This document shows positions 381-52,840 of a stretch of DNA of 64,000 bases, in pieces. The position numbers and the translations under genes are program-made. The notes under the pieces were generated by a model. The model was not told the origin of the DNA. It searched no databases and saw nothing but the letters and a program-made list of their open reading frames with translations. The stretch spans positions 22,220 to 86,219 of the forward strand of contig JAFURC010000049.1 in assembly GCA_017472015.1 (NCBI GenBank), read 5' to 3'. Origin of the DNA: Bacilli bacterium. Lineage in GTDB: Bacteria > Bacillota_I > Bacilli_A > RF39 > UBA660. Numbering within the stretch: position 1 is the first letter of the stretch; every line of letters begins with the position of its first letter.

Positions 381-395
381 TTGAAGGTTAAATTT

Positions 396-1667
396 ATGAT
401 AGAAACACCAAAGATCGAGGTAAATAATATGTTAGAAATTTATAATGATACTCATAAAAATTTATATATAATTAATAATAAACCAAGTGAAAATTTATTA
501 GATTGTTTAAATAAAGTAAACTCAAATACTTTAAATTTATTATATAATACATACTTTGATAAGAAAGTAAGTAAAGATAAAAAAATAAAACTTTTACATG
601 AAAAAATATTAAATAGTTTTAAATATTATTTAAATGATTTAGATACTTATCATGAATATGTATTTGAAAGTGATAATATATTTGATTATATATTAGTAAA
701 ATTTGGTTATATGTTTATATTTGAAGATAACAATAAAGAATACTATATTATTCCCAAAGAATTAAAAAAATTATATAAAGAAAAATATACAAAAGAATAT
801 AAAAAACTAAAAAGAGAAAAAGATATTTCTAAATTCATAACTAGTTATTTACTTTTAAATGGAATAATTGATAAAGATGAATTAATTAAAATAATAAAGA
901 CTTATCATATAAATATAACTTATAAAGAATTAGATAATTTTATTAAAGATAATAAAGTTAAAACATATAATAATTATTTAATATTATTTGAATATTATTT
1001 AGATTTAATAAAAGAAAAGAAAGAATTAGATTATATAATTTTAAAAGAATTTGAATTAAAAGAATATGCTATGTTTTATTTAAATTTTCTTAATGAATTA
1101 AAAATAATTCTTAAAGAAAAATATTTAGAATTTAGTTATAAAATATTAAAAACTAATAATAATTTATATCGCAAATTAGATAAACTTATTAAAGAATATA
1201 ATTTAGAATCTAAAGAAAAAGAATTAAAAGATTTATTTTATAGTTCAATTCCTAATCTTCGTTTTTGGTCTTTAAATGGAAGAACATCTTTAGAATATCA
1301 AGATGAACTTGTAATAAACTTATTTACTTTAGAAGAAAAACCAAGTAAAACAGATTTATATAGTTGTTTAAGTGAATTAAATGAAGAACTATACTCTGAA
1401 TTAGTTTATATTTTATTTGATGAATATATATTTGATAAGAATAAAGTAATTAAAGAAATAATTCAAACTTTTAAAGATGATGTAGAAGAAGATAGAGGTA
1501 TATTAAAACATTTAAAAAGTTATCATAATGAAAAAATAACTAAATACTTTGATTTTACATCAGTTGAATTTGGACATGCTTTCTTATATAGAGATAATAA
1601 TGATATTAAAGTTTTAATTCCTAATGAAATAATGGAAATAATAAATAAAAGATCAAAAACTTCTTGA
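396..1667 (+). CDS. Hypothetical K/E/Y/N-rich protein
   Basis: Long ORF; GAAGG RBS 7 nt before ATG 396 (track start 381 is TTG); no motif recognised. Confidence 0.5.
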   Translation: MIETPKIEVNNMLEIYNDTHKNLYIINNKPSENLLDCLNKVNSNTLNLLYNTYFDKKVSKDKKIKLLHEKILNSFKYYLNDLDTYHEYVFESDNIFDYILVKFGYMFIFEDNNKEYYIIPKELKKLYKEKYTKEYKKLKREKDISKFITSYLLLNGIIDKDELIKIIKTYHINITYKELDNFIKDNKVKTYNNYLILFEYYLDLIKEKKELDYIILKEFELKEYAMFYLNFLNELKIILKEKYLEFSYKILKTNNNLYRKLDKLIKEYNLESKEKELKDLFYSSIPNLRFWSLNGRTSLEYQDELVINLFTLEEKPSKTDLYSCLSELNEELYSELVYILFDEYIFDKNKVIKEIIQTFKDDVEEDRGILKHLKSYHNEKITKYFDFTSVEFGHAFLYRDNNDIKVLIPNEIMEIINKRSKTS

Positions 1668-2029: not shown

Positions 2030-4063
2030 ATGAAAAAGAAAACAAAGAACTTAATATTAAGTATTGTAGTAACCTTAATATTATTACTAACATTTACAGT
2101 AACATATGCTGTATTTACTTACCAACAAACAGGTGAGAATAACCAACAGTTAGTACTAGGTGATATTTACATGCATTATAATGAAACAACAACAACGATA
2201 GACATTGATAACATGATGCCAATAAAAAAAGAAAGTTACGAAGTAGAAATAACAGATGAACGAGTAGAATTATGTAAAGATTATATATATGATACCTATG
2301 GAACAAAATTAGGAGATTATGGGATACCAATGTCTAATATGGTTGATTCTGGAAAAGTAAAATTTATGGCAATCGATGATGAATATACTAATACACATGA
2401 ATATTTATGTAAAAATAATTTGTTACAAGAAATAAATAATGGATTATTTACCCAAAAGGATATAAATTATTTTATTGAAATAGGATTAATAAAAAATGTA
2501 ATAGACAATATAAAAAGTCTTGATTATTTTGAATTTACAATTTCAGGAAAAAATACCAATACCAAAGGAGATATTTCGTATAGTATTCAACTAGCAGAAG
2601 GTGAAGAACCAGTTCAAGAAGGGGAATTAATCCTTAATAGAATTGAACCAAGTTTTTTAAGATTTCGTTTAACTGAAGTAAATGGATCAGAAGAGACTAT
2701 TTTAAAAGATAATCAAGTATTTACATCATTTGAAAATGCTAATTTATATACAAGTATAATTTCTAATAATACAACAAATAAAATTAGTAAAACATACAGA
2801 CTTTATATGTGGATTGATGAAAATGTTGTGATTGGTAATACAAGTGACGCTGATTACTCAATGGAAGATTGGGCTAATTTATATGCAAGTATAAAAGTTC
2901 AAGTCAATGGAAAATATGTAAAGACAGAACCTGAACCTTTAAGTGAAAAAATTAAAAGCAAATTAGGAAGTGAAGGAGTAGTAGCTGTTAATACTGATGG
3001 GGACTTATATGACGGAACTGGGGAAATTCGAGAATATCGCTACTCCGGACTAGGTAATTATTGTACTTATACAGATGGTGCGAATGATTATAAATTAAAT
3101 GTTGAGGATAATACTTGTCCGCAAACGGCATGTTCACTAATTGGAATGTTTGTAATTAATGGTAATAGTGAAGGAATTCTATTAGAAGGTGGTGGAAGTT
3201 GTACATCAATGGGAGGAGTAGAATTTAGTTTAAAAGATAATCAAACAACACCAACTGATTCAGGACTTCGTAATTATGTAGAATTTAATGGAGAACTATG
3301 GAGAATCATTGGAGTATTTGGGGATAATGTAAAAATAGTTAAAGATACCCCTTTAGCAAATGATATATACAATGAAGAAACATATACATCTGGGGAAACA
3401 ACATATAATTTGAAATTTACAACCGAAGGAACTAAATATGGTTATTTTATATATAAACAATTAAGTGATAATAGTTATAATAATGACTGGACAACTTCAG
3501 GAGTAATGCATTACTTAAATGATGAAACGGGAAATAGTTATTATGTCAACAACTTATCGAATGAAGCCAAGAACATGATTCAAGAAACAACCTATTATTT
3601 AGGAAATGTATCGAGAGGTATGATGAGTGGAAAAGATGTATACGAACAAGAAAGAGGGAATGTTGTATGTGATTCTTCAGTAACAAGTAATTCCGATCAA
3701 AATGGTTGTAATATATGGAATGGAAATCAAGAAAATTGGACAGGAAATATTGCTTTAATATATCCAAGTGATTTTATGTATTCAATGCCAAGTAATAATT
3801 GGGCTTCAGAAGATGATATGACACTTTTAACTGCTTTTAGAGAGTCATGGTTAAGAAATAGTGAAGCATTAGGATATTGGCTTTTGTCTCCATCGGCTCT
3901 TTATCCTCCATATGTGTGCAATTGGTCCATCATTGGTGAGGTTGGCGGCAGCAATGCTGATGATAGCTACGCTCTTCGTCCCAGTCTTAATCTAAAATCC
4001 AACATAATGGTAACATCGGGAGATGGAAGTTATGATAATCCGTATAGATTGATAGGAGCATAA
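2030..4063 (+). CDS. Secreted/surface protein with TasA/camelysin-like (SipW-type) signal peptide and C-terminal WLxSP...RPxL module
   Basis: GGAGG RBS; N-terminal K-rich region, TM segment, then TYAVFTYQQTGENNQQLVLGDI; C-terminal YWLLSPS...YALRPSLNL...GDGSYDNPYRL. Confidence 0.65.
   Translation: MKKKTKNLILSIVVTLILLLTFTVTYAVFTYQQTGENNQQLVLGDIYMHYNETTTTIDIDNMMPIKKESYEVEITDERVELCKDYIYDTYGTKLGDYGIPMSNMVDSGKVKFMAIDDEYTNTHEYLCKNNLLQEINNGLFTQKDINYFIEIGLIKNVIDNIKSLDYFEFTISGKNTNTKGDISYSIQLAEGEEPVQEGELILNRIEPSFLRFRLTEVNGSEETILKDNQVFTSFENANLYTSIISNNTTNKISKTYRLYMWIDENVVIGNTSDADYSMEDWANLYASIKVQVNGKYVKTEPEPLSEKIKSKLGSEGVVAVNTDGDLYDGTGEIREYRYSGLGNYCTYTDGANDYKLNVEDNTCPQTACSLIGMFVINGNSEGILLEGGGSCTSMGGVEFSLKDNQTTPTDSGLRNYVEFNGELWRIIGVFGDNVKIVKDTPLANDIYNEETYTSGETTYNLKFTTEGTKYGYFIYKQLSDNSYNNDWTTSGVMHYLNDETGNSYYVNNLSNEAKNMIQETTYYLGNVSRGMMSGKDVYEQERGNVVCDSSVTSNSDQNGCNIWNGNQENWTGNIALIYPSDFMYSMPSNNWASEDDMTLLTAFRESWLRNSEALGYWLLSPSALYPPYVCNWSIIGEVGGSNADDSYALRPSLNLKSNIMVTSGDGSYDNPYRLIGA
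3881..3990 (+). other. A-depleted, GC- and NNC-codon-enriched patch (candidate DGR variable region)
   Basis: Hand count gives 53/110 G+C and 19/110 A; nine NNC codons (tgc tcc atc ggc ggc agc agc tac ccc) in 36 codons. Confidence 0.4.
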
Positions 4064-4230
4064 ATGTTTCCTTGAGGGATTACTCCTCAGGAAACGGGTA
4101 AAAATTAAATACACGAGAAGAGTAAAAAAATATATAAAGTAAATTATAGACCTCCAAGGTGGGTTTACCCATCTTGGTAGGGCTAAATTATATGATCTAC
4201 TCCTTTGCGCAAATAAAATAGGAGTTGTGA

Positions 4231-4587
4231 ATGAATATAATAAAAATAAGAAAAAGTGGAACATTTTATAATGTATTTGATGATAATTGTTATATATTAT
4301 ATTTCTTTTTTAATTATAATATTAAAAATAATAAAGTTGGATTTCCTAAATCGTCTTTAAATAAAGTTATTAATAAACTTGAAGAATTTAAAATAAATTA
4401 TGAAGTAATTGGAGATTGTAGTAATAATTTTAAGAACTTAAATAAGTATTCTAAATATTTAAAATTAGGATTTGAAAAATATAATAAAGATATAAAATAT
4501 ACTAATATAATGGAAAAATTAGGTACTGTAAGTGATTTGAAATTAGAAAGAATATTAATGAATATTGAGGCAATACTTGATGAATGA
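4231..4587 (+). CDS. Small MutS-domain-I-like protein
   Basis: GTFYNVFDDNCY...KVGFPKSSLNKVINKLEEFKINYEVI matches the MutS N-terminal pattern GDFYExFxxDA...GIPxxxxxxYxxKLxxxGxxVAI. Confidence 0.45.
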   Translation: MNIIKIRKSGTFYNVFDDNCYILYFFFNYNIKNNKVGFPKSSLNKVINKLEEFKINYEVIGDCSNNFKNLNKYSKYLKLGFEKYNKDIKYTNIMEKLGTVSDLKLERILMNIEAILDE

Positions 4588-4753
4588 TAAATTTAAAATA
4601 GCTAGATATATTAAAGGTTTTATAATTATCCTTGATGATTATTTAGTTAATTATCCTAAAAAATATTTTGAACTTAGAAATAGATTAGTAAATGATAGTT
4701 ATGAATTATTAGAACTTGTATATCTTGCAAATTATATGAATGTTTTTGATTGA
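4580..4753 (+). CDS. Truncated four-helix-bundle (Avd / 23S-rRNA-IVS-protein-like) ORF
   Basis: FIIILDDYLVNYPKKYFELRNRLVNDSYELLELVYLAN resembles the N-terminal half of that family; about half the usual length; ATGAATGA overlap with the upstream ORF. Confidence 0.35.
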   Translation: MNDKFKIARYIKGFIIILDDYLVNYPKKYFELRNRLVNDSYELLELVYLANYMNVFD

Positions 4754-4978
4754 AGAAATGTTAGTTTGTTATGATTAATTTTAATTAAAGGATTTAGAGA
4801 AATTAAATAATTCTCAGTAGTCCTTTTTTCTTTTAATTTATTGTCATCCGCTTTTTATAATTTACTTTTGTAATTTAGGGAATTAAGAAATTTAATTTTT
4901 TTCTTATTTAATCTATTAAATTTAATTTTATTATTGTATAATCTAATTAAATAGGAAACTATTTAGAATGGAGGATAT

Positions 4979-6718
4979 ATGAAAAAAGAAAAAAAATTTT
5001 TATTCGTGTTTTTAATAGGTCTATTTTTATCTATTCCAAATGTTAGTGCATTAGTAGGACCAATAGAAAATACGGAGTCAATAATATTTAAACATAATAA
5101 TCAAGTACATGTCATTAAGGAAAGGAATTTATCATGTATACAAGGTGAAGAAGTATATTTTGAAGAGTTTGACTTATATGGTAATTTCTACTATGAAGTA
5201 GATGGAGAAATGGTAAAAATTACTAAAGATAATAAATGTGCTCCTGTGACAGCTGAAGATAAAATTAATATTAATCAGTTTAATAGATATCAATATGAAT
5301 TTGAAACAACTACTGAAGGTAAAGTTGTTATTAATGCATATGATAAAAGATATGAAGAAGCTTTTTATGAAACTATTGACACAGAAGTTAATAGTGAAAA
5401 AACATATTATACATTTGATGAAGATAATGTAGAAATGATAGAATTTACAGGTACTACTTTTGATCATGATGCTACATACTATGAAGTTGGATATGTTGTA
5501 ATGATAAAAGAAATAAATCAAGATCCAAATCTAACTTATTATGATCGATATACAGCATATGTTCCAGATGGAAAATTAATATTTAAAACAGTTCAAGAAT
5601 TTAACAAAGATAATTTTAATGATTATTATATTGTAAATAACAATGTAACTAAACCAGAGAAAACTATTGAAGTAAATCAAGAAGTTTTTAAAGAACTATT
5701 AAATGATCCAGAACTTGATTATTATGATATCCTAAATATAGGAGAAAATTACTATATACAGATGTCATTTACAAATAATGATGAAAAAGTATATGATCTT
5801 GATGGAAATTTACTATTTACTAATGGCATGGTTTATCCATTAGGAGATGATTTATATGCAATTACAAGTTTTGAAAATTATAAAACAGCAATATATAATA
5901 AAGATACAAAATTAATAGATGTTGATAAATATTCGGCAATGGTAAATACATATTATTCTAATTATTATAATTTAGGACTAGCAATGAAAATAAGTGATAA
6001 TCAAGAAGAATACTATTTATTAGTTCATCAAATTTATCATATTATTTCCGGAGAAAATCAAAAATATGATAATAAAGATTTAAAGTTTACTTTCAGTGGT
6101 GAATCAGAATTATTTCATAGAATTTTAATTAATGGTGAAGAAATTTCTAGTAGTAATTATGAAGTAGAAGATGGAAGTACCATTATAACTTTAAAAAATG
6201 ATTATTTAAAAACTCTTGAAAATGGAACATACAAATTAAAAGTAGAATATAAAGATGGAGGATATGTTGAAACTACATTTGAAGTTGAGATAAAAACTTT
6301 CAAATTAACTTTTGATGCTAATGGTGGAGTATTTAAAGATCAATCGAAAACAATGAATTATGAAAATTGGGAATTTGGAATGTTACTAATTCAAGAAGAA
6401 CCAACAAAAGAAGGTTATAAATTTACGGGTTGGTATACTGAAAAAGAAGGTGGTTCGCCCTTAGCAGCTGAACCAGTTATGACTGATGATATGATAGTTT
6501 ATGCTAGATGGGAAGAAGAAAATAATACTTCAGAAGGCAATGTTAGTGAGGAAGATAAAACAGATACTTCAAAAGATAATGATACAGAAAATAATGTAGA
6601 TACGCCTCAAACATTTGATCAATTTGCAACAAGTATTCTGATGACAACTATTTCATTGATAGGTTTAGTAGGTACAATAATGTATTTAAAAAAACAAATA
6701 AAGAAGGAAATTAATTAA
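4979..6718 (+). CDS. Surface protein with signal peptide, Listeria-Bacteroides (InlB B-type) repeat and C-terminal membrane anchor
   Basis: GGAGG RBS; signal peptide ending NVSA-L; FKLTFDANGG...PTKEGYKFTGWYTEKEG...MIVYARWEE; C-terminal hydrophobic stretch followed by KKQIKKE. Confidence 0.7.
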   Translation: MKKEKKFLFVFLIGLFLSIPNVSALVGPIENTESIIFKHNNQVHVIKERNLSCIQGEEVYFEEFDLYGNFYYEVDGEMVKITKDNKCAPVTAEDKININQFNRYQYEFETTTEGKVVINAYDKRYEEAFYETIDTEVNSEKTYYTFDEDNVEMIEFTGTTFDHDATYYEVGYVVMIKEINQDPNLTYYDRYTAYVPDGKLIFKTVQEFNKDNFNDYYIVNNNVTKPEKTIEVNQEVFKELLNDPELDYYDILNIGENYYIQMSFTNNDEKVYDLDGNLLFTNGMVYPLGDDLYAITSFENYKTAIYNKDTKLIDVDKYSAMVNTYYSNYYNLGLAMKISDNQEEYYLLVHQIYHIISGENQKYDNKDLKFTFSGESELFHRILINGEEISSSNYEVEDGSTIITLKNDYLKTLENGTYKLKVEYKDGGYVETTFEVEIKTFKLTFDANGGVFKDQSKTMNYENWEFGMLLIQEEPTKEGYKFTGWYTEKEGGSPLAAEPVMTDDMIVYARWEEENNTSEGNVSEEDKTDTSKDNDTENNVDTPQTFDQFATSILMTTISLIGLVGTIMYLKKQIKKEIN

Positions 6719-6842: not shown

Positions 6843-8150
6843 ATGTTTGAAGGACTAGGAGAAAGATTACAAAAGATAGTACATAAAGCAAAAGGGTATG
6901 GAAAAATAACTGAAGAAAACATTAGTGAAATGGTAAGAGAAGTTAGAATTGCCTTACTAGAAGCTGATGTTAATTATAAAGTAGTAAAAGAATTTACTAA
7001 TCGTGTTAAAGAAAAAGCACTTGGAGAAAAGGTTTTAGATAGTTTAAAACCAGGAGAAGTATTTGTTAAAATTGTTAGTGATGAATTAACGGAATTACTT
7101 GGTGGTGAGTATAAAGAATTAAATATTAAAGGAGATCCAGCTATATTAATGCTAGTTGGTCTTCAAGGAAGTGGTAAAACAACAACTATTGGGAAACTTG
7201 CTAATTTACTTCGTAAAAAATATCATAAAAAACCAATGATGGTAGCATGTGATGTGTATCGTCCAGCTGCCATTGATCAGTTAAAACAAATTGGAAAAGA
7301 ACTTGATATCTTTGTTTATGAAAATGGACTTAATAATCCAGTTGAAACAAGTAAGGACGCAATTAAATATGCTAAAGATAATGGGTATGATTACGTTTTA
7401 ATTGATACAGCAGGACGTTTACATATTGATGAAGAATTAATGAATGAACTTAAAAATATTAAAAGTGAGGTATCTCCAGAAGAAATATTATTAGTAATTG
7501 ATTCTATGATGGGACAAGATGCGATTAATGTTATAAGTGGATTTAATGAAGCCATTGATTTAACTGGAGTTATTCTAACTAAACTAGATGGTGATACAAG
7601 AGGTGGAGTTGCCCTATCCGCAAGACATTTAACCAATGTTCCAATTAAATTCATGGGAACAAGTGAAAAAATGGATGGACTTGAACCATTTGATCCGAAA
7701 AGAATGTCAGGACGTATTCTTGGAATGGGAGATATTGTTAGTTTAGTTGAAAAAGCAACAGAAGCAATTAGTCAAGAAGATGCTGAAAACTCAATTAAAA
7801 AAATGCAAAAAGGTAATTATAATTTAGATGACTTTTTAAAACAAATGAAACAAATACGTAGTATGGGACCACTTGAAAATTTATTAAAGTTATTCCCAGG
7901 GGCTAGTAAAATGGGATTTAATAAAATCCAAATTGATCCTAAACAAGTTGCTCGTATTGAGTCAATTATTTTATCAATGACTATGGAAGAAAGGAAAAAT
8001 CCTAATATCATTAAGGCGAGTAGAAAAACAAGAATTGCTAAAGGATCAGGAGTAAGTGTAACTGAAGTTAATCGTCTTTTAGAACAATTTGAAAATTATA
8101 AAAAAATGGTTAAAAATATAATGAATGGTAATATGAAATTACCTTTCTAA
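6843..8150 (+). CDS. ffh: Signal recognition particle protein Ffh
   Basis: GLQGSGKTTT, DTAGR, TKLDGD GTPase motifs; Met-rich M domain. Confidence 0.95.
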   Translation: MFEGLGERLQKIVHKAKGYGKITEENISEMVREVRIALLEADVNYKVVKEFTNRVKEKALGEKVLDSLKPGEVFVKIVSDELTELLGGEYKELNIKGDPAILMLVGLQGSGKTTTIGKLANLLRKKYHKKPMMVACDVYRPAAIDQLKQIGKELDIFVYENGLNNPVETSKDAIKYAKDNGYDYVLIDTAGRLHIDEELMNELKNIKSEVSPEEILLVIDSMMGQDAINVISGFNEAIDLTGVILTKLDGDTRGGVALSARHLTNVPIKFMGTSEKMDGLEPFDPKRMSGRILGMGDIVSLVEKATEAISQEDAENSIKKMQKGNYNLDDFLKQMKQIRSMGPLENLLKLFPGASKMGFNKIQIDPKQVARIESIILSMTMEERKNPNIIKASRKTRIAKGSGVSVTEVNRLLEQFENYKKMVKNIMNGNMKLPF

Positions 8151-8181
8151 TAAATAAAAAAAATTAGTAAGGGGTGTTATT

Positions 8182-13324: not shown

Positions 13325-13347
13325 GGGAAGAATACTTCCTTTTTTTC
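13325..13347 (+). terminator. Weak intrinsic terminator after glmM
   Basis: GGAAG/CTTCC stem, loop AATA, T7. Confidence 0.45.
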
Positions 13348-13423
13348 TTAAATTTAGATTAATTAAGATAGTTGCAGAATCATAAAATTTATTGTATAAT
13401 ACAGATATCGTAGTGGAGGAAAT

Positions 13424-19278: not shown

Positions 19279-20466
19279 TTATTTTTTTAATTTATTTATA
19301 ACATCAATAGTGTGTTTTTTCTTATCAGGAAACATGTGGTAATAAGTTCTTTCAACTTCTGTTGGAGTGTCTCCAATTCTTTCTGCAACTTCATATACAT
19401 CACAACCTAAATAGATAAGCAAAGATACATGACTATGTCTAAATCCATGTGGAGTTATTTTTTTAACTTTAGCATTATTGATATATTCTTCTAGTTTTCT
19501 TCTAAAAGTTGTTTTAGCAAAAAATCTAACATTACCAAATATAAAGAAGTTATTGTTAAATCCATATATTTTTTCTTCAATTTCTTTATGTTTTTGTAAC
19601 AGCATAATTAACTGATCATCTAAATTTACTATTCTAAATGAGTTTTTAGTTTTAGGATCGGTTATAATATAATCTTTTCCCTCTATCACTTTTAATTTTT
19701 TTTTATTGGCTTCTTCAATCATAGGCTTAAAGTCTTTTTTTTCAAATTTTGTAGTTAAAGTTTTGTTGATGCTTATCGTTTTTCTTTCAAAGTTAATATC
19801 ATTCCAATTTAAAGCATTAAATTCTCCGAAACGTAATCCTGTATAGTAAAGAAAGTTAAACATCAAATAATAAACGTCATTATCTACTACTTCAATGAAT
19901 TTTTGAAATTCTTCATAAGTCCAAAAATTCTTTTCACTATCCCTTGTGTCGCTACTTTTTTCAACTTTTTGTTTAATAATTTTTGAAGTAACTTTTCTAT
20001 CAAAATCATAATTGTTTTCAGCATATTCTAAAATTTCTTTCATTATCGAAATGATTCTATTTTTTTCGTCTAATCCAATGTTAGTTAAACCCAAAATATA
20101 ATTGTTCCATTTTGTGATAATATTGATTTTTATACTATGTAATTTATAGTCTTTAAAATAACTTAATATATATTTATTAGCCGTTAATTTTCTTGAGTAG
20201 AATGTTGAAGATTTTATAAAACTTTTTTTATATATCAACCATCCATTATATACATCTGCAAAAGAAATACTAATGTCCGAAATATCTTTTTTCGATACAG
20301 TTGTTAAAAACTCTCTTTCAGCATTCTTAGCTTCACTAGAAGTTAAAAACATTTTAGATACTTTTTGTTTTCTATTACCATACATATCGGTATAGTAGCA
20401 TTTATAATAATAATGCCTACCATCTTTAGTCCATTTATTTTTATTTTTTTCATTGTAAACTGCCAT
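19279..20466 (-). CDS. int: Tyrosine integrase
   Basis: HGFRHSHVSLL and ERTYYHM catalytic motifs; GGAGG RBS 8 nt before ATG at 20466 (track start 20481 is TTG); adjacent to attL. Confidence 0.9.
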   Translation of the reverse strand: MAVYNEKNKNKWTKDGRHYYYKCYYTDMYGNRKQKVSKMFLTSSEAKNAEREFLTTVSKKDISDISISFADVYNGWLIYKKSFIKSSTFYSRKLTANKYILSYFKDYKLHSIKINIITKWNNYILGLTNIGLDEKNRIISIMKEILEYAENNYDFDRKVTSKIIKQKVEKSSDTRDSEKNFWTYEEFQKFIEVVDNDVYYLMFNFLYYTGLRFGEFNALNWNDINFERKTISINKTLTTKFEKKDFKPMIEEANKKKLKVIEGKDYIITDPKTKNSFRIVNLDDQLIMLLQKHKEIEEKIYGFNNNFFIFGNVRFFAKTTFRRKLEEYINNAKVKKITPHGFRHSHVSLLIYLGCDVYEVAERIGDTPTEVERTYYHMFPDKKKHTIDVINKLKK

Positions 20467-20484
20467 AAATTTTACCTCCAATTA

Positions 20485-35589: not shown

Positions 35590-36981
35590 ATGGAAAAAGT
35601 TGTTAAAGATTTTTTGATAGGATTAGGATATAGTAGTGATATCATAGATGAAGAACAAGAAAAGAGAGTTGCGGAATGGTTAACTTGGTTTGGTGGTAAA
35701 ACTAAGAAACATGAATATTACGTTTACAATGGGAAAAAGAAGGTTAAACGAGAATATAAAAGTTTGAATATTGCTAGTCAAAGTTGTGGCGATTTATCAG
35801 ACTTTTTCTTTAACGAAAAATTAGATATAACAATTGATAAAGAAAAAGTACAAAAACAGATTAATGCTTGTTTAGAACAAAATGGATTTTTAGATAATTC
35901 TAATAAACTTATGCAATTAGTTAAGGCATTAGGAACAGGTGCCTATGTTCCGTATTTAGATAATAATGTATTAAGAATAAATTATATTAATGCGACTAAT
36001 ATAATGATTTTAGATTCTGATAAAAACGATGTTAAATCAGTTTTGTTTTGGAATAAAAGAAAAACACTTGAGGGAACAGAATTATATGTCAATGCTCATA
36101 TTTTAACTGAAACAGGTTATGTAATTCATAATAGAAAATATTTACAAAAGAATAATAGCGAAAATTATATTGAACAAGACCTTGAAGAAGAAATAAAAGT
36201 AATAGATACTAAATCGTTTGTTCCTAAATTTGCATTATTATTTACCCCAGAAGTTAATAATTTAGATATTAATAGTCCATATGGAATAAGTTGCTATGCT
36301 AATGCATTAGATACGATAATTTCAATAGATCATGGATATGATAGTTTTGATAATGAGATAACAACAGGTAGAAAAAGGGTATATGTTCCTACAAGTGGAG
36401 TTCAGTTTAACATTGACGAAAGTGGAAATACAGTACCAGTATTTGATGAAAACGATATTGTCTATTATGCATATCCAGGAAAAGAAAATGACAAATTACA
36501 AGAATCTAGTTTTGATTTAAGGATTGACCAAATTACAGACGCAATTCAAGCTCAATTAAACTTATATACTGCTAAAGTAGGTTTAGGACATAACTATTAC
36601 AAGTTTAAAAATGGTGAAGTATATGTAAATACTGATAATGTAATGAGTGCTAATAGTGATGTTTATCGTAAAATTAAAAAACAAGAAAATATCATTACAA
36701 AAGCAATCACTCAATTAATCTATGGTATTGCTGAGTTAATAGGAATAAAAACTAAATTTAGTGTATCAGTATTCTATGATGATTCAATAATTGAAGACAC
36801 TGAGAAGACTAGATTACAGGCTCAAAGTGAATATAATTCAAAGTTAATAAGTAAAGCTCAATACTATAGAGATGTATATAAATTAAAAGACACCGAGGCT
36901 ATAAAATTCGCAGAACAAATGAATAAAGAGATAAAAGAACAAACTATAATTGATGGAAGTGAGTTTGATTTAGTGGAGTGA
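35590..36981 (+). CDS. Portal protein (SPP1 gp6-like)
   Basis: N-terminal EWLTWFGGKTKKHEYYVYNG...SLNIASQSCGDLSDFFFNEKLDI pattern; follows terL. Confidence 0.75.
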   Translation: MEKVVKDFLIGLGYSSDIIDEEQEKRVAEWLTWFGGKTKKHEYYVYNGKKKVKREYKSLNIASQSCGDLSDFFFNEKLDITIDKEKVQKQINACLEQNGFLDNSNKLMQLVKALGTGAYVPYLDNNVLRINYINATNIMILDSDKNDVKSVLFWNKRKTLEGTELYVNAHILTETGYVIHNRKYLQKNNSENYIEQDLEEEIKVIDTKSFVPKFALLFTPEVNNLDINSPYGISCYANALDTIISIDHGYDSFDNEITTGRKRVYVPTSGVQFNIDESGNTVPVFDENDIVYYAYPGKENDKLQESSFDLRIDQITDAIQAQLNLYTAKVGLGHNYYKFKNGEVYVNTDNVMSANSDVYRKIKKQENIITKAITQLIYGIAELIGIKTKFSVSVFYDDSIIEDTEKTRLQAQSEYNSKLISKAQYYRDVYKLKDTEAIKFAEQMNKEIKEQTIIDGSEFDLVE

Positions 36982-36987
36982 TAGTTT

Positions 36988-38592
36988 GTGGATGAAAAAA
37001 TAGAAAAAGCAATAAAACCACTTGTTGAAATGTATGAAAATATCGAAAATGAATTGTTAGAGATAATAGCAAGGCATTTTTTATTTTCAGAAGAATTTGA
37101 AAATAGTGACTACTGGAGGATTAAGAAACTTGATGAAATGGGACTATTTAATCAAGAGATAGTTGAATATATTACTAGGTACACCAATAAATCTAAAAAA
37201 GAAGTTTTGACAGCACTAAACGAGATAGGTATAGAAACAGTTAATATCGATAATTTAAATAGGTTGTTTGAAGATGAAGTGTTAAAAGTAAATCCTAATA
37301 TATTAGTTGAAAATTACACCATTCAAAACATGATAAATTTTGCCTACAATGAGGTTTCTAATAGATTTATAGAAATGTCTGATAAGATAGAACAAGCAAC
37401 AAGAGATGCCTATTTAAACGTTATAGAGGAGTGTTATTTAAAAACATCTATGGGAACACATTCTTATCAAGAAGCAATTAGACAATCGATAGATAATCTA
37501 GGAAATATAGGTATTACTACTTTAATCTATAACACGACTGATGAAGAAGGAAATGTTGTTGGAATAAGAAGATATGATGTCGCTGGAACTGCTAGAAGAG
37601 AAATATTAACAGGTGCTAGACAATTATCTAATAATGTTTATTTAGAAGTTGCTAATAAATTAGAAGTAGAATACTTATATCTAAGTGAACATTTACAATG
37701 TAGACCAGAACACTTTGACTGGCAAGGAACAATAATTAAACGCGAGGATTTAGTTGAAATAACTGATTATGGTTCTATTACTGGACTTGCTGGTATTAAC
37801 TGTAAACATTATGCTGAACCGTATTTTGGCGATAAACGTGGTGATGAACTTAAAACATTTACTGAAGAAGAAACATCAAAAGCATACGAATTATCACAAA
37901 AACAAAGATACCTAGAACGAGGTGTTAGGAAATGGAAACGTAAAGCAGAGATGTTTAAAGTTAATGGTGATAAAGAAGCATATCTTAAATCAAACAATAA
38001 AGTAAAAGAATGGCAATTAAGAGTTAAAGATTTTACTGAAAAGAATGATTTAAAGAGAGATTATACAAGAGAATATATTAGTAAATTAGAATTAAAAGGT
38101 TTAAGTGCTAATAGTAAGTTTACTGTTGATAATCATCCAAAACCTAAAGTTTTAGATAATATAAAATTAAGTAATAAAAATATAGAAAAGATATTTAATA
38201 TGTATGAAAATCAAATAAAGAATGATACAATAGAAAATGCAATAATTATTACTAAAAAAGGCAAGATATATCAGTGTTTTGGTAATGAAACTAATGTGTG
38301 GCCTGATATAGATTTAGGTGATGAATTAAAAGAAGCATATGTTACTCATAATCATCCAAAAGATGAAACCTATTATAGTTTTAGTGAGGCAGATATTAAG
38401 TTATTTGATAAATATAAATTATCTAAATTAAGAGGTGTAGATAATGAATATACATATGAATTAGATAGAACTAGAAAACCAGTTCTTGATATGCCTATTG
38501 ATTTTGATGAAGAATATGGTTTAGAACATTTAAGATGTATTCAATATGCAATAGATAATGACATTTGTTATACGAGGTGGAAAAATGAATGA
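36988..38592 (+). CDS. MuF/SPP1-gp7-like head morphogenesis protein with ~170-aa C-terminal extension
   Basis: LSEHLQCRPEHFDWQG core; follows the portal gene; extension carries THNHPKDETYYSFSEADI. Confidence 0.7.
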   Translation: MDEKIEKAIKPLVEMYENIENELLEIIARHFLFSEEFENSDYWRIKKLDEMGLFNQEIVEYITRYTNKSKKEVLTALNEIGIETVNIDNLNRLFEDEVLKVNPNILVENYTIQNMINFAYNEVSNRFIEMSDKIEQATRDAYLNVIEECYLKTSMGTHSYQEAIRQSIDNLGNIGITTLIYNTTDEEGNVVGIRRYDVAGTARREILTGARQLSNNVYLEVANKLEVEYLYLSEHLQCRPEHFDWQGTIIKREDLVEITDYGSITGLAGINCKHYAEPYFGDKRGDELKTFTEEETSKAYELSQKQRYLERGVRKWKRKAEMFKVNGDKEAYLKSNNKVKEWQLRVKDFTEKNDLKRDYTREYISKLELKGLSANSKFTVDNHPKPKVLDNIKLSNKNIEKIFNMYENQIKNDTIENAIIITKKGKIYQCFGNETNVWPDIDLGDELKEAYVTHNHPKDETYYSFSEADIKLFDKYKLSKLRGVDNEYTYELDRTRKPVLDMPIDFDEEYGLEHLRCIQYAIDNDICYTRWKNE

Positions 38593-43608: not shown

Positions 43609-45369
43609 ATGGACGGAAAATTAAGAATAGATACTGAATTAGAAACTAAAAATTTTGAAGCACAATTAAACGAATTGAAATCAAAATTACAAGTAATGCA
43701 AAAAACTTTATTAACTGAAAATGAAATTCCGGTTAAATATAGAATGAGTGAATCTGAAAGAATGGCTCTTGAAAGTAGCATAGAAAGAACTAAAAATCAA
43801 ATAATTGATTTAGAACAAAAAATTTCTAATGCTGGAGATGAAAGCGAAAGCACTGGTAAAAAAATGTCAATTAATTTTGAAAAAGGTGTTAGATCGTTGA
43901 AACGATTTGGTTTATCTTTATTTAGTCTTAGATCGATATATTCTTTAGTTAGTAAAGCAAGTTCAGCGTATCTATCACAAAACACTGAATTAGCACAAAA
44001 GTTGCAAAATGTTTGGGTGGGGTTAGGCAGTTTTTTATCTCCAGTTATCGAATATTTGTCTGATGTTTTAATGAAAGGACTAGGATATTTAAATGTCTTT
44101 ATTAAAGCATTAACAGGTACTGATTTTATAGCTAATGCAAACGCTAAGGCGTTAGATAAACAAGCCAAAGCACAAGCAAATTTAAATAAACAAACAGCAT
44201 CTTTTGATGAAATAAATAAGGTTAGTGACACGTCTTCAAGTGGAACTAGTGATTTGAATTTAATAGAAACACCAGAATTAGATGATAAAATGGTAAAAAA
44301 ATTAGAGGATTTAGCCAATTGGTTAATTGAAAATCGTGAATTGATAAAAGATGTAGGAATTGCATTAGGTGTTACGTTTGGAGCAGTTAAAATAGCAGGT
44401 TTGTTAAGTAATATTAGTAAACTAATCGGAAGTGCAGGAACTACTACAGGTTTAATAGGTATAAAAGTAGGATTAATGGCTATTGCAGCTGCATTGGCTA
44501 CCAAATGGGCAGTTGATAATTGGATTGATTTAAAAAACGGAATAGACAACACTAAAGCCTCGTTAGATGATATGAACAATCGTTATACAGAAGGAACTAG
44601 AAGTGCTCAAAAATACAGTGATAAAATGTGGGGAATAGTTGAAAGTGGTAAAGCAACTGAAGAGGTATATGGTTCATTTAAGAGATCATTAAATGAAACT
44701 AACGATGATTTTAAAAGCCATATAAAAACCTTGCAAGATGGAAAAAATTGGTTAGGTCAAATAACTGGTACTAATCAACAATTAACTGAAAGTCAAGCAG
44801 AAGTTTCGCGAGCATTATCAGTAGCAACAGCTGATTTTATTAAATTAAAAGAAGAAGGAAAAGTAACTGATGTTGAATTACAAGAATTTTGTAATACTTT
44901 AGCAAATAATATTAGATATTTAGAAGAATGTGGTGTAAATGCTTTAGATTTAAAAGAAGATTATGAGACTTTAACTGGAAAAAAATACGAGACAACAGTT
45001 TCGGCACAACTTAAGGATGATGTAACTTGGAAATTTAAAAATTTAATTAATAGTTTAACAGGTATGAACATTTATGTTGGAACAACATTTCACGAAAGTT
45101 CTTCTGGAAGAACTCACGGAGGAAACGGTAGAGCATTTGCTAAAGGTGATATTGTGTATCAACCTACTAGAGCCTTAATTGGTGAAGCAGGTTATCCAGA
45201 AGCGATAGTTCCGATGACACCAGATTACTTATCCGTATTAGCGAGTGAAATATCTAGGTATGGTAATAACGGTGGACCTTCAGTTACGAATGTTTATTTA
45301 GATGGTAAATTAATACAAAGACAGTTTTCTAAAAAACAAGAAATATATGATTTTTCTACAAATAATTAG
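43609..45369 (+). CDS. Tape measure protein
   Basis: Coiled-coil and hydrophobic segments; C-terminal LIGEAGYPEAIVPM motif. Confidence 0.8.
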   Translation: MDGKLRIDTELETKNFEAQLNELKSKLQVMQKTLLTENEIPVKYRMSESERMALESSIERTKNQIIDLEQKISNAGDESESTGKKMSINFEKGVRSLKRFGLSLFSLRSIYSLVSKASSAYLSQNTELAQKLQNVWVGLGSFLSPVIEYLSDVLMKGLGYLNVFIKALTGTDFIANANAKALDKQAKAQANLNKQTASFDEINKVSDTSSSGTSDLNLIETPELDDKMVKKLEDLANWLIENRELIKDVGIALGVTFGAVKIAGLLSNISKLIGSAGTTTGLIGIKVGLMAIAAALATKWAVDNWIDLKNGIDNTKASLDDMNNRYTEGTRSAQKYSDKMWGIVESGKATEEVYGSFKRSLNETNDDFKSHIKTLQDGKNWLGQITGTNQQLTESQAEVSRALSVATADFIKLKEEGKVTDVELQEFCNTLANNIRYLEECGVNALDLKEDYETLTGKKYETTVSAQLKDDVTWKFKNLINSLTGMNIYVGTTFHESSSGRTHGGNGRAFAKGDIVYQPTRALIGEAGYPEAIVPMTPDYLSVLASEISRYGNNGGPSVTNVYLDGKLIQRQFSKKQEIYDFSTNN

Positions 45370-47330: not shown

Positions 47331-49385
47331 ATGACTGAAATATTTAATAAAATAATATATACATTTGGTTCAACATCTGCTTTAAAAGCGATTGTTAGTT
47401 ATGAAAAGAAACGAGAAGGAGCAAATATGCTTTATCGTTTCAACTATAAAATCCTGATTACAAACAAATCAGGAGAAGATTATGGATATGGTTCTTATGC
47501 TAACAATTTGCAAGCCGTATTTACCTTGAATGGAGTCAATGTTTGGACTCAAAACACGAAATCAAGTGATACTAGTTGGTCTTTTGAATATACAAGTGAG
47601 TGGCTCACTGTTAAGAATAAAACAACAGGTACAGTACCGTTTAAATTCACTATAAAAGATACTCAAAACTCAAGTTGGTGTAATTATACATCAGGTACAT
47701 ATAGTCTTGGTGTTGATCCAGCAGGTAGTGATATAGGTGCAGTTGCAAACTTCAACATAGGAAATGCAATAACTGTTCCTATAACCAAATATGCAAGTAT
47801 GTATGATGTTTTAGTTGTTAAAATGGGAAGCACATTTATTAAGACAATTAATAATGCTAGTAGTCCTACAACAATAACATTTACTTCAAGTGAGTTAAAT
47901 ACAATTTATGGTTTGACTACAACTGTTCAAAGCACAGTATTTACATTTGAATTAACTACATACGAAGATAGTTCAAAAGCAACGATAGTTGGAACAACAA
48001 AAAGTACAACTGCAAGAGGTTATATAGTTGGCTCTTATCCTTTGATTAATAGCATAACTGCAATAGACACTAATTCAACAACAACTACATTAACAGGCAA
48101 TAGTTCAAAGATAGTCAGGTATAAGTCTAATGTTAAAATAAGTGTAAGTGTAAGCCCTGTAAATCAAGCAACAATAAAAAGTGTTACGATTAACGGAAAA
48201 ACTGCGACTTTGAGTAGTGGTTATTATGTGGCTACATTTAATTCTGTTAATACAAATAGTTTTGATGTAAAAGTTATAGATAGTCGTGATTTTCCAACTG
48301 ATAAAAATTTAACTATATCAAGTTCAAATTATATTCAATATATTCCTTTAACATTAAGTGCTAGTGTTCGTAGAAATCAACCGACAGATGGTAAAGTAGT
48401 AATTGAATTTAGTGGTAATTACTTTAATGGCTCGTTTGGAAGTGTAAGTAATACTTTAACTGTTCAATATCGTTATATTCAAAAAGGTGGCTCTTGGGTT
48501 AATACATGGAACTCACTTACACCAACCATAAGTGGAAATACTTATAAAGGTAGTTTAACCATAGAGGGTTTTGATTATCAAAAACAATATGTATTCCAAG
48601 TTAGAGCAACTGATAAATTTGGTACACCTAGTCCAACAGAAGTTAATGTTACAAAAGGACAACCAATTTTATGGTGGAACGAAACTGATGTTACTGCAAC
48701 CAATAATATGATTGTTGGACAAAATCTAAATGTAGAAAAAAATATTTATAATGGGATACAATTTAGCAAGAATTTTTTAGAGGATTTTAGAAGTCAATTA
48801 TTTAATAAAACAGGTAGATTTAAGGCTTTTAAGGTAATTCGTTCAGCCGTAACTGGTAATAGTGATTTTCCGCAATATAGTGCAGGGATGGCATGGGCTA
48901 TTGAAGACACACAAGGTTTTATCTTAACTAAATATGGTAGTGAAGATGTCATTGTCGGTGGAGGTAATGGAGATGTAATTAAATGGATTAAACATCTTGC
49001 TTTTAAAAATGATTTAGATAGTTATCAATTACAAGAAACCGTATTATACAATAATACAACAGGAACAACAGGAACTATAACATTAAGTCAAAGTTCTGCT
49101 AATTTTACTTATTTAGAGTTCTTTTACAATAAAGAAATTGATGGTAAAAAGATGTTTAGTTCAACGAAAGTTTATCAACCTAACGGAAAATATGTAGCAT
49201 TAGATTTAAGTGCTTATTGGGATGATAGTTCAACAATGCAAACACTTTCAAAATGTGTATATATATCAGGAACTTCTATTGGTGTTCAAACTGCTAATAC
49301 TGCACATGGGAATGTAACTAATGGGGGAACTTTTGCAGGTTTGGAAAACCAAGTATATATAACTCGAATAGTTGGTTATAAATAA
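47331..49385 (+). CDS. Tail fibre / receptor-binding candidate
   Basis: S/T/N-rich beta-type sequence; position. Confidence 0.5.
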   Translation: MTEIFNKIIYTFGSTSALKAIVSYEKKREGANMLYRFNYKILITNKSGEDYGYGSYANNLQAVFTLNGVNVWTQNTKSSDTSWSFEYTSEWLTVKNKTTGTVPFKFTIKDTQNSSWCNYTSGTYSLGVDPAGSDIGAVANFNIGNAITVPITKYASMYDVLVVKMGSTFIKTINNASSPTTITFTSSELNTIYGLTTTVQSTVFTFELTTYEDSSKATIVGTTKSTTARGYIVGSYPLINSITAIDTNSTTTTLTGNSSKIVRYKSNVKISVSVSPVNQATIKSVTINGKTATLSSGYYVATFNSVNTNSFDVKVIDSRDFPTDKNLTISSSNYIQYIPLTLSASVRRNQPTDGKVVIEFSGNYFNGSFGSVSNTLTVQYRYIQKGGSWVNTWNSLTPTISGNTYKGSLTIEGFDYQKQYVFQVRATDKFGTPSPTEVNVTKGQPILWWNETDVTATNNMIVGQNLNVEKNIYNGIQFSKNFLEDFRSQLFNKTGRFKAFKVIRSAVTGNSDFPQYSAGMAWAIEDTQGFILTKYGSEDVIVGGGNGDVIKWIKHLAFKNDLDSYQLQETVLYNNTTGTTGTITLSQSSANFTYLEFFYNKEIDGKKMFSSTKVYQPNGKYVALDLSAYWDDSSTMQTLSKCVYISGTSIGVQTANTAHGNVTNGGTFAGLENQVYITRIVGYK

Positions 49386-51781: not shown

Positions 51782-51993
51782 TGAATAATAAAATTAAAGA
51801 TAAAATTGCTAAATTAATAGATTTAAAATCTATAATAACTTTAACTTTGATAATTACTTTAGAAATTTTAATAGTAAAAGGAACAGCTCTAAATAGTGAT
51901 TTATTCCTTTTGTTTTCGAATATACTGACAATGGTGATTACTTATTTTTTCACAAAAAAATCTAATAATGAAAGGAGTGATAGTAATGAGTAA
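51781..51993 (+). CDS. Holin
   Basis: Two TM segments and a charged C-terminus; directly upstream of the lysin. Confidence 0.6.
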   Translation: MNNKIKDKIAKLIDLKSIITLTLIITLEILIVKGTALNSDLFLLFSNILTMVITYFFTKKSNNERSDSNE

Positions 51994-52840
51994 AAATGGT
52001 AAATTAATATTTAAGAATTTCGATCCAGTAGTGACTAGTGCATTTGGTTATAGAATTAATCCAATAACAAAAAAAAAACAATTCCATGCAGGAGTTGATT
52101 ATGGAACAAATGGAAAAAAATTACCTCAATATGCTCTTGAAGATGGTTATGTAACAGGTTGTGGAAAAGATAGTACAGGTGCTTTATTCGTTTATGTAAA
52201 ATATCCTAGACTTGGTAAAACTGCAATACATTACCATTTAGACAGTTATAAAGTTGCTAACAATCAAAAAGTAAATGCTAATACTATAATTGGTTATACA
52301 GGAACAACAGGTAATTCAACAGGAATACATCTTCATTTTGGTTGGTTTCCAACAGAGGATAGATACAAAGCATGGGATAAGAAAAGATGGGAAGATTTTG
52401 AAAAATACGAGTTTCCAAAAGTAGAAAATAAATCTAATACATTAAAATACAAAATAGGAGATACTGTTAAAATAAATGCAGTTTATGTATCAAGTACAAG
52501 CAATAAAAAAGTTAATCCAGCAATAACAACAGGAAAAATTACAAGAATTGTTGTAGGTGCTAGAAATCCATATTTACTTGAAAATGGCAATATTGGTTGG
52601 GTAAATAATGATTGCATTGTAAATTCTAATGGATATATTCAAATTAATACAAAAGATGGTGTATGGTGTAGAACAGGTGGTTATGGCTTTAAATATCCTA
52701 AATATAAAGTAATTCCATATCAAACTAAATGTGAATTACTTGCTAAAAATATAGGCTATGCTAATGGATATAATTGGGATAAAGTTATTTATGAAAATAG
52801 AGAAGTTTATTTGCCTAATACTTGGAATAAATATTTGTAA
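51986..52840 (+). CDS. Endolysin: M23 peptidase plus SH3-type wall-binding domains
   Basis: GGAG RBS before ATG 51986; HAGVDY and GIHLHFG metal-binding motifs. Confidence 0.8.
   Translation: MSKNGKLIFKNFDPVVTSAFGYRINPITKKKQFHAGVDYGTNGKKLPQYALEDGYVTGCGKDSTGALFVYVKYPRLGKTAIHYHLDSYKVANNQKVNANTIIGYTGTTGNSTGIHLHFGWFPTEDRYKAWDKKRWEDFEKYEFPKVENKSNTLKYKIGDTVKINAVYVSSTSNKKVNPAITTGKITRIVVGARNPYLLENGNIGWVNNDCIVNSNGYIQINTKDGVWCRTGGYGFKYPKYKVIPYQTKCELLAKNIGYANGYNWDKVIYENREVYLPNTWNKYL

Follow-up and report, generated by a model that had tools for sequence, protein, structure and literature searches.

Background

Diversity-generating retroelements (DGRs) that contain a small MutS-like (MSL) gene have been classified as "Architecture D", with the Legionella DGR as the named example (Wu et al. 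2018, NAR 46:11, PMC5758913). MSL proteins were described there as small (112–283 aa), always accompanied by avd, and with a mean pI of 7.2 ± 1.7. Remote targets of DGRs were reported in the same work to differ from the template repeat (TR) by A-to-N changes only, the highest non-A count for one target being 11. In the DGR of Bordetella phage BPP-1, an inverted repeat is located within 24 bp directly after the variable region (VR; PMC3240598). The DUF6273 fold has been described as C-type-lectin-like in the literature on tentaclins (PMC10743442) and on Faecalibacterium prophages (PMC11792537).

The locus reported here is part of a 64-kb stretch of a metagenome-assembled genome (MAG) of the Bacilli lineage; the whole stretch that was analysed is henceforth called the window. 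The locus is most probably (rough probability 0.85) a second, now decayed copy of an MSL-type chromosomal DGR, with a frozen VR, an intact MSL gene, and a broken avd (Table 1). It adds no new DGR mechanism; this kind of system is well understood, and the window holds a remnant of it.

Table 1. Features of the locus, with positions given within the window
Feature	Position	Strand	Basis and remarks
DGR target gene, 677 aa, IJ501_06445	2030..4063	+	intact ORF; N-terminal signal/TM segment; C-terminal DUF6273-like domain with the VR
Putative fossil VR, aa 618–654 (A-depleted, GC-rich, NNC-rich)	3881..3991	+	composition; alignment with TR_L242, TR_L243, and TR_L251
Conserved hairpin 1, directly 3' of the target stop	4066..4095	+	locus comparison; fold energy; compensatory pair
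Conserved hairpin 2, target–MSL spacer	4151..4181	+	RNA fold, dG −21.1 kcal/mol, z −4.3
Perfect palindrome TTTGCGCAAA	4204..4213	.	27 nt before the start codon of MSL
MSL (MutS-like) DGR accessory gene, 118 aa, intact	4231..4587	+	paralogue identity; AF2/Foldseek; family profile
Putative gene-conversion tract, most of MSL and avd 5' half	4258..4738	+	96.9% identity to L242
avd pseudogene	4580..4786	+	57-aa ORF 4580..4753 stopped by TGA at Arg58; homology through the stop to Avd residue 69
Putative deletion scar, AT-rich spacer	4787..4978	.	place of avd 3' half, RT, TR, and a ~90-aa ORF in intact cassettes

Composition of the patch and relation to template repeats

A sequence-only reading of the window had pointed to a GC-rich, A-poor patch at the 3' end of the target gene and had proposed it as a DGR variable region. 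Composition counts bore this anomaly out, with 48.2% G+C and 17.3% A in positions 3881–3990 against 25.9% and 41.1% in the whole window and 28.9% and 41.3% in the gene outside the patch. The patch is thus near the extreme of all 110-nt segments of the 64 kb (quantiles of 0.9998 for G+C and 0.0004 for A), the most GC-rich of which begins at position 3879. The hand counts of 14 G/C-ending and nine NNC codons were exact on recount; these amount to 14/37 codons vs 15.6% in the remaining gene (Fisher p = 0.002) and 9/37 vs 6.4% (p = 0.0008), respectively, and A-ending codons to 2/37 vs 44%. The TRs themselves have ~41% GC, which makes some of the GC excess a property of the repeat family itself.

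As the sequence-only reading had stated, neither a TR nor a reverse transcriptase (RT) was found in the 64 kb, either by an adenine-tolerant sliding comparison of both strands and a repeat search for the TR, or by tblastn/blastn with related RT, Avd, and TR sequences; the 8 kb further upstream of the window likewise contained no RT or TR. An apparent RT remnant in ORF 381..1667 (22% identity over 345 aa in tblastn without composition correction) was rejected, as the match was gone after compositional adjustment. A complete paralogous cassette (L242) was found on another contig of the same MAG, based on shared IJ501_ locus tags and on co-occurrence in ERZ27256817. It consists of a 719-aa target, a 118-aa MSL, a 113-aa Avd, a 369-aa RT, and a TR, and its gene order (target-MSL-avd-RT-TR, all on one strand) is the same in the intact cassettes L249 and L251. 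The RT matched RVT_1, had BPP-1 bRT as its best solved homologue (E 1e-15), and carries LGAMTSQ aligned to IGSLTSQ, i.e., the (I/L/V)GxxxSQ motif of a DGR-clade RT that is missing at the window locus. Among the named RT homologues, a single one has the IJ501_ prefix. The option of a TR and RT elsewhere in the genome was therefore correct as to their presence, but this TR mismatches the patch at 22 of 66 non-A sites.

The patch could be aligned, one codon to one codon, with genuine TRs from related cassettes (TR_L242, TR_L243, and TR_L251). Its 22/66 non-A mismatches to TR_L242 are as many as separate TRs from two different organisms (likewise 22/66), and TR_L242 is hence not its template. The best match was TR_L251, from a related cassette of another sample, against which 20 of 34 adenine sites were changed vs 12 of 63 non-A sites, with nine of these 12 at codon position 3; restricted to codon positions 1–2, the counts were 20/34 A sites vs 3/31 non-A sites (p = 3e-5). 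Genuine TR/VR pairs have 0/66 (L242, with 13 of 31 adenines differing) or 1/63 (L251) non-A differences; the 12 non-A mismatches to the best TR mean that the true template of the patch was a TR other than those compared, and no TR/VR pair with differences confined to TR adenines was obtained for the patch from the window, TR_L242, or TR_L251. The differences concentrate on TR adenines in AAY codons, of which TR_L242 has 14, and the variable columns and entropy maximum of the family coincide with these codons. The scaffold residues of the repeat region (LSPS...V...G...A...LRP.L) are conserved, and the VR ends in CGT CCC AGT in the window vs CGC CCA GTC in L242. The TR homology and the significant adenine bias support the patch being a former VR, as had been proposed from its composition.

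A TR pattern of 49 fixed bases, with N at the known TR-adenine sites, had no match in JGI metagenomes or IMG/VR; since NCBI and ENA assemblies are the only ones with this organism, which may be absent from the collections searched, this blank result is uninformative. The lone target L246 was considered as a trans target of the TR of L243 from the same metagenomes, and was discarded due to 23/66 non-A mismatches. Three assemblies carrying the locus were compared (NCBI MAG window, ERZ27256817 k141_86371, and ERZ28654512 scaffold_2158). The patch was identical in all of them, with 11–23 differences at other sites, so that the hypervariability anticipated for the patch was not seen among these three, possibly related, samples. 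The target protein of L242 was also identical in the three contigs on which it occurs. Because the target of the active cassette is equally invariant and the assemblies may stem from related samples, the invariance of the patch is weak evidence for a frozen VR.

Target domain and accessory genes

Pfam DUF6273 (PF19789) matched aa 478–657 of the target with an E-value of 8e-5 and 23.0 bits, which is below the gathering threshold of 23.5. The AF2 model of aa 440–677 (pLDDT 79.7) matched the T. ramosa IgAse (9qa6; N-terminal domain = DUF6273) at an E-value of 1e-6 and phage DUF6273 proteins at 2e-5 to 1e-3. These model-based matches support a placement of the C-terminal domain in the wider DUF6273 fold family. 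A C-type-lectin fold had been suggested for the last ~130 aa and was not recovered directly by Foldseek against the PDB, where the canonical C-type lectins MBP-C and LOX-1 appeared only at a probability of ≤0.06. The target has 604 homologues, and its paralogue P0002 sits in a complete DGR.

Both short downstream ORFs (4231..4587 and 4565/4580..4753) were present as the sequence-only reading had described them. The protein encoded by the first of these is 91% identical to the MSL of L242, and its AF2 model (pLDDT 86.4) retrieved almost only MutS/MSH domain I in Foldseek (60–67 aa, rmsd 1.3–2.4 Å, probability near 1). The family profile retrieved 803 representative clusters, nearly all of them small proteins; 46 of 57 sampled diverse members individually matched Pfam MutS_I (best E-value 4.8e-10), and one sampled member also carries RVT_1. 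The window protein itself had no direct match in Pfam or NCBIfam, and the profile had no significant match to PDB sequences. The proposed similarity to MutS domain I consequently holds for the fold and for family members, and not as a direct profile match. The Phe of the MutS Phe-X-Glu motif aligned with the invariant F12 of MSL, with the Glu position being variable. The protein is basic (pI 9.1) and, in the window as well as in the intact cassettes L242, L249, and L251, is a small protein encoded in a DGR cassette together with avd. The MutS-like accessory class that the sequence-only reading had linked with DGR surveys is real (Wu et al., PMC5758913). A ~90-aa ORF after the TR, MutS-like by eye, was rejected as a second MSL (hhalign probability 0.13).

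The second ORF encodes 62 aa from a TTG or 57 aa from the homologous ATG and matched NCBIfam DivGenRetAVD (NF033474) at profile positions 3–49 of 104 (E 0.0026, 18 bits). Using the Avd of L242 as a tblastn query, aa 1–69 aligned to 4580–4786 at 81% identity, across the stop. The stop corresponds to AGA->TGA, with T at position 4751 in the window, L250, and L001 and A in L242 and L249, and TGA at codon 58 was common to all three assemblies. The 113-aa Avd of L242 covered positions 2–103 of 104 of DivGenRetAVD and 7–105 of 107 of Pfam bAvd (PF22296), still under the curated 80-bit NCBIfam cut-off, and Avd had no match among PDB sequences. A complete four-helix-bundle Avd of ~104–130 aa matching the model end to end was not present in the window. 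The view that this ORF corresponds to the N-terminal half of Avd and is cut short by a stop is thus upheld by the partial profile match and the full-length paralogue. An extension of the pseudogene to ~4900, suggested by MAFFT, was dismissed since its 38–52% identity is AT-rich background and tblastn homology stops at 4786. The following spacer (4787..4978) showed no resemblance, as protein or as DNA, to Avd aa 70–113, the RT, the TR, or the ~90-aa ORF and contained no Rfam family. The next gene downstream (4979..6718) encodes an unrelated Flg_new surface protein.

Probable gene conversion and spacer elements

The tract 4258–4738 differs from L242 at 15 positions in 481 bp, with flanks that are at most 70% identical. 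Its identity to L251 is only 77%, although the TR of L251 best matches the patch. Because the tract is 97% identical to L242 vs 77% to L251, the comparison indicates gene conversion, with the active cassette as donor, across the larger part of MSL and the 5' half of avd. L001 carries the L242 base at 11 of the 15 differences, and the clustered tract differences between the assemblies could derive from assembler cross-talk rather than from biological gene conversion. Eight of the 15 differences fall on an A of L242, which is near the estimate from the A content of the tract and hence gives no sign of RT involvement.

Hairpin 1 was found in the window, L242, L249, L243, and L251 and was missing from the lone targets L246 and L252. 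Its DNA fold has a dG of −8.4 kcal/mol (z −3.6), and L251 shows a compensatory change of a G:C to a T:A pair; as no T run is present, it was not called an intrinsic terminator. It lies ~75 nt past the end of VR homology, and the IMH is definable only with the cognate TR. At the position of hairpin 2, L242 and L251 also have hairpins (dG −20.2 and −16.6, respectively) with different inner-stem sequences. The palindrome TTTGCGCAAA has one copy in the window and one, correspondingly placed, in each of L242, L249, and L251, and is missing from the MSL-less loci L243, L246, and L252. Both spacer hairpins and the palindrome are thus retained at the window locus.

Origin of the locus

Of the two options that the sequence-only reading had left side by side, a fossil cassette or action in trans, the former is the better one, with conversion of the accessory tract to be added; the resident TR is not the template (22/66). 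According to the fossil reading, the last rewriting of the VR would have been through adenine-specific mutagenic retrohoming, with a cognate TR, now gone from the locus, as its source; such an origin would account for the low A content and the abundance of G+C and NNC codons in the patch, given a genome with 26% GC. The cassette would then have lost the avd 3' half, the RT, and the TR, and avd would have gained its nonsense codon, which would leave the VR frozen and the protein with one fixed binding surface. Later, conversion from L242 would have replaced the bulk of MSL together with the 5' half of avd. The data show the homology of the VR with TRs and its adenine bias, the truncation of avd, the absence of RT and TR from the window, the mosaic identity, and the complete cassette in the same MAG; we infer the order of events, as well as a VR that is no longer diversified and a target protein that is still made. 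As the MAG is incomplete, a second matching RT/TR pair could sit on an unassembled contig.

Such a second, L251-type DGR on unassembled or unbinned DNA might still diversify the patch in trans, with the local avd as debris. This is improbable, even though the patch is nearer to the TR of L251 than to the resident one (12 vs 22 non-A mismatches), the avoidance of NNA codons is undecayed toward genomic usage and suggests recent templating, the MAG is a draft, and lone targets without an adjacent RT are common among relatives (L246, L252). Against it stand the single IJ501_ RT among the named RT homologues, the invariance of the patch in three assemblies, the lack of TR or VR variants in the JGI and IMG/VR pattern search (where the organism may be absent), and the demonstrably broken adjacent cassette. 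Very unlikely, in turn, is that L242 still uses the window gene as a remote target, with its RT, Avd, and TR acting in trans on 3881–3991. DGRs are known to act in trans on targets that lie apart from them (Wu et al., PMC5758913), the genome does encode an intact RT, Avd, and MSL, and the post-stop hairpin is common to the window and the active cassette; however, non-A mismatches as numerous as between the TRs of two organisms exceed the published maximum of 11 for a single target and would have been erased by one homing event, and the VR 3' end is unlike that of L242. The mismatch spectrum thus largely refutes rewriting by L242.

Misjoins in metagenome assemblies classically arise at near-identical repeats, and the assemblies differ at 11 clustered sites inside the ~0.5-kb MSL/avd repeat of 97% identity. 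A chimera at this repeat, with the target gene wrongly joined to foreign downstream DNA and the real locus having an intact avd-RT-TR, is nonetheless highly improbable given that the same junctions were present on both sides in three separate assemblies and that, to the right of the tract, avd homology runs on for ~50 nt at low identity including the TGA, as in a diverged paralogue and unlike an abrupt change to unrelated DNA where the repeat ends. Hardly credible is a patch unrelated to retrohoming, such as a transferred or intrinsically GC-rich conserved DUF6273 motif. The GC content of the TRs and the conserved scaffold residues would fit such a motif; it is already contradicted by the divergence excess on TR adenines at codon positions 1–2, by the coincidence of the patch positions with the family entropy maximum, and by MSL and avd following the gene in just the arrangement of cassettes that possess RT and TR.

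With the fossil reading, the locus is a worked example of cassette decay, in which avd gained a nonsense codon and lost its 3' half, RT and TR disappeared, and part of the locus was homogenised with a surviving paralogue. Even after its TR and RT have gone, a former DGR VR stands out in local composition more sharply than anything else in a very AT-rich genome, and such anomalies offer a practical route to orphan or fossil VRs that are invisible to detectors of TR/VR pairs. The little-studied MSL class gains a confident MutS-domain-I fold and ~800 representative clusters. It is conceivable, if rather unlikely, that DGR cassettes of this Bacilli lineage form a small multigene family which exchanges modules by conversion and in which a dead cassette is kept as a reserve. 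In that case, the window MSL would be maintained at 97–99% identity to the active copy, by conversion that reaches differently far in different populations, and a further conversion event across the 3' end of the VR, or across the TR, could re-enlist the target for the resident RT; cassette decay would be reversible, and one RT could swap target paralogues.

Comparison with known systems

The locus shares with the MSL-containing DGRs of Wu et al. a small MutS-like gene accompanied by avd, a VR at the 3' end of the target, and a chromosomal cassette. It differs in that the window copy has no RT or TR, a truncated avd, and a basic MSL, with MSL being compared by published description only; the target domain of the Legionella group is of the DUF1566 type, whereas here it is DUF6273-like. 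With the BPP-1 DGR (mtd-avd-TR-brt), the intact paralogue shares an RT closest to bRT with the (I/L)GxxxSQ motif, and further common traits are a four-helix-bundle Avd, an AAY-rich TR, TR/VR differences at A only, and a hairpin-forming repeat somewhere 3' of the VR. In contrast to BPP-1, the TR is located downstream of the RT, an extra MSL gene is present, the cassette is chromosomal and outside the prophage of the window, the window copy is non-functional, and its hairpin is ~75 nt past VR homology instead of directly after the VR. The remote targets of Treponema denticola (Wu et al. 2018) resemble the window gene in having a VR without RT or TR beside it and a DGR elsewhere in the genome. 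They differ in the mismatch spectrum, as the patch departs from the resident TR by more than A-to-N changes (22/66 non-A sites), and since the window locus still has leftovers of accessory genes of its own, it is a cassette in decay rather than a satellite target. In the phage DUF6273 targets (tentaclins and Faecalibacterium prophages), the VR is carried by the same domain family, with the Pfam match of the window protein being borderline; those proteins are tail components, whereas the window protein is cellular, 677 aa in length, and has a signal peptide, and the VR is N-terminal in tentaclins and C-terminal in the window protein.

Composition of the patch and its target domain

The A-poor, GC-rich patch at window 3881-3990, in the 3'-terminal part of gene 2030..4063, was confirmed as a compositional anomaly: it holds 48.2% G+C and 17.3% A in a window of 25.9% G+C and 41% A (composition count, 64 kb), and among the 110-nt stretches of the 64 kb it is the most extreme for both. 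The codon counts of the sequence-only reading were exact on recount, with 14 of 37 codons ending in G or C against 15.6% in the remaining gene (p = 0.002) and nine of 37 being NNC against 6.4% (p = 0.0008); only two of 37 end in A, compared with 44% in the remaining gene.

The target protein (IJ501_06445, 677 aa, from an uncultured 'Bacilli bacterium' MAG) has a signal/TM segment at its N-terminus, and its C-terminal domain scores just below threshold against Pfam DUF6273. An AF2 model of residues 440-677 (pLDDT 79.7) has structural matches in phage DUF6273 proteins and in the IgA peptidase of Thomasclavelia ramosa, where DUF6273 forms the N-terminal domain; this domain is already on record as a C-lectin-like target of diversity-generating retroelements (DGRs) (PMC10743442). 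In the protein-family alignment, entropy within the C-terminal domain peaks on the columns templated by AAY codons of the template repeat (TR), and this peak overlaps the patch.

Complete cassettes in the same MAG and in relatives

A paralogue of the target (IJ501_04925, 62% identical) is encoded on another contig of the same MAG, in a complete cassette (L242) of target, 118-aa MutS-like accessory protein (MSL), 113-aa Avd with full-length matches to both Avd models, 369-aa reverse transcriptase (RT), and a TR just 3' of the RT; both loci co-occur in one ENA assembly (ERZ27256817). The solved structure closest to this RT is BPP-1 bRT, and the DGR motif aligns. The TR encodes 14 AAY codons; its own variable region (VR) departs from it at 13 of 31 adenines and none of 66 other sites. 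The same architecture was found in L249, a strain variant of this active cassette, and in L251, a related cassette from another sample.

The L249 TR is one base off that of L242, its VR differs from the L242 VR at 31 of 111 positions against only two of 67 just upstream, and 11 of its 26 TR/VR mismatches are non-canonical, lying outside the adenines, which is unusually many. A conserved ORF of about 90 aa (58-87% identical) stands 3' of the TR in each of the three intact MSL-type cassettes; it was matched by neither Pfam nor NCBIfam, showed no relation to MSL that could be detected, left no trace in the window, and may be an additional accessory gene. Relatives commonly carry lone paralogous targets that have no MSL, avd or RT beside them (L246, L252); that of L246 sits between hexapeptide-transferase and GGDEF genes in a neighbourhood syntenic with window 11343-15959, and its VR is matched by none of the available TRs (23 non-A mismatches).

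Accessory genes and conserved features of the window locus

Both ORFs that had been described downstream of the target are present. For the 118-aa ORF, the proposed likeness to MutS domain I held for fold and family but not as a direct profile match (Pfam, NCBIfam): its AF2 model (pLDDT 86.4) has structural matches almost exclusively to MutS/MSH domain I, its family profile retrieved 803 representative clusters, mostly small proteins, and 46 of 57 sampled members individually match Pfam MutS_I, one of the 57 also carrying an RT domain (Pfam RVT_1, E 5e-17). This model and these family matches place the ORF in the MSL class of accessory proteins that Wu et al. defined (PMC5758913). The RVT_1-bearing member is likely P0373 (489 aa), because its MSL-like region sits at residues 372-486; it would then be an RT-MSL fusion, independently tying MSL to reverse transcriptase.

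The 62-aa ORF proved to be a truncated Avd, as had been proposed: its single NCBIfam match is the DGR Avd model, of which it spans no more than profile positions 3-49 of 104. Homology to Avd extends over 4580-4786 (residues 1-69), and the codon for Arg58 (AGA in L242 and L249) is TGA in 3/3 independent assemblies of the locus, the window included. Past 4786, no sequence like the avd remainder, RT, TR or ~90-aa ORF was found, and the next gene encodes an unrelated surface protein. An adenine-tolerant scan, a repeat search and tblastn/blastn upheld the earlier finding of neither TR-like copy nor RT in the window; an RT-like alignment to ORF 381..1667 was discarded as a composition artefact.

The remnant retains two conserved non-coding hairpins (see table). 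Hairpin 2, a strong one (RNA dG -17 to -21 kcal/mol, z -3.8 to -6.5), is conserved in position, with an inner stem of different sequence in each locus, and no T run was found after either hairpin. The perfect 10-bp palindrome TTTGCGCAAA has a single copy in the 64-kb window and precedes each MSL start examined by 27-29 nt (27 in the window; four of four MSL-bearing loci); it was not found in loci without MSL, and may be an operator or other cassette-specific site.

Coordinates of features in the window and in related loci
Feature	Position	Strand	Remark
Hairpin 1	window 4066-4095		directly 3' of target stop codon; compensatory pair change in L251
Hairpin 2	window 4151-4181; L242 12254-12283; L251 6038-6069		target-MSL spacer
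Palindrome TTTGCGCAAA	window 4204-4213; L242 12327; L249 416; L251 6109		
VR of L249	69-179		
TR of L249	2255-2365		
~90-aa ORF	L242 14394-14663; L249 2483-2755; L251 8177-8455		
Lone paralogous targets	L246 4982-7111; L252 3279-5282		
Prophage integrase	window 19279..20481	minus	
tRNA-Gln	window 33100		inside prophage
Prophage portal	window 35590..36981		
Prophage minor head protein	window 36988..38592		
Prophage tape-measure-like protein	window 43609..45369		
Prophage tail protein	window 47331..49385		
Prophage M23 peptidase	window 51968..52840		

Genomic surroundings

A prophage is integrated next to tRNA-Arg (19128-19202) and occupies window 19128-~53000; no DGR components were found in it, either among sampled proteins or in searches of the whole window for RT, Avd and TR. 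The 428-aa ORF 381-1667, immediately 5' of the target gene, has no Pfam or NCBIfam match. The 117-aa ORF at 27-380 matches only the C-terminal half of Trypsin_2 (profile 70-144 of 144); in L001, another assembly of the locus, short ORFs of 208 and 89 aa come before it (7008-8351), and it may be part of a fragmented protease gene. An AbiEi/AbiEii toxin-antitoxin pair lies at L001 3910-5357, some 3-4 kb before the window begins, and further upstream follows a GPR spore protease gene, which suggests that the host forms spores.

Origin of the patch and status of the locus

Although the patch and the resident L242 TR are homologous, they differ at 22 of 66 non-adenine sites. TRs of two different organisms diverge by the same amount, and the number far exceeds 11, the highest reported for any one target gene among curated DGRs (PMC5758913); the resident TR was accordingly rejected as the writer of the patch. 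The L251 TR is a much closer fit, with differences at 20 of 34 adenines and 12 of 63 other sites; nine of these 12 are at third codon positions, and at codon positions 1-2 the differences affect 20 of 34 adenines against three of 31 other sites (p = 3e-5). Because of the mismatches to the resident TR, this adenine-biased fit and the lineage-specific codons common to patch and L251, the patch is best explained as the outcome of adenine mutagenesis templated by an L251-type TR that has been lost.

The accessory tract is of L242 type, since 4258-4738 (most of MSL and the 5' half of avd) shares 96.9% identity with L242, where the flanks share at most 70%, and no more than 77% with L251. The simplest explanation of this tract is gene conversion, with the active cassette as donor. 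L001 has the L242 base at 11 of its 15 differences there, and such differences between assemblies could also reflect assembler cross-talk between repeats.

With an L251-type VR, an avd cut by TGA, and neither RT nor TR in the window, the interpretation of the sequence-only reading as a fossil DGR cassette is supported, at a probability of about 0.85. The main residual alternative, diversification of the patch in trans by a second, unassembled L251-type DGR, would share the fit to the L251 TR and is judged improbable. Three assemblies agree throughout the patch and vary at 11-23 positions elsewhere; this invariance weighs little, since the target of the active cassette is just as constant across the three contigs that carry it.

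The functional hairpin of BPP-1 is no more than 24 bp away from the VR (PMC3240598), much closer than in the window locus. As a fossil cassette, the locus would be a previously unannotated case of a known kind of system, involving no new mechanism.
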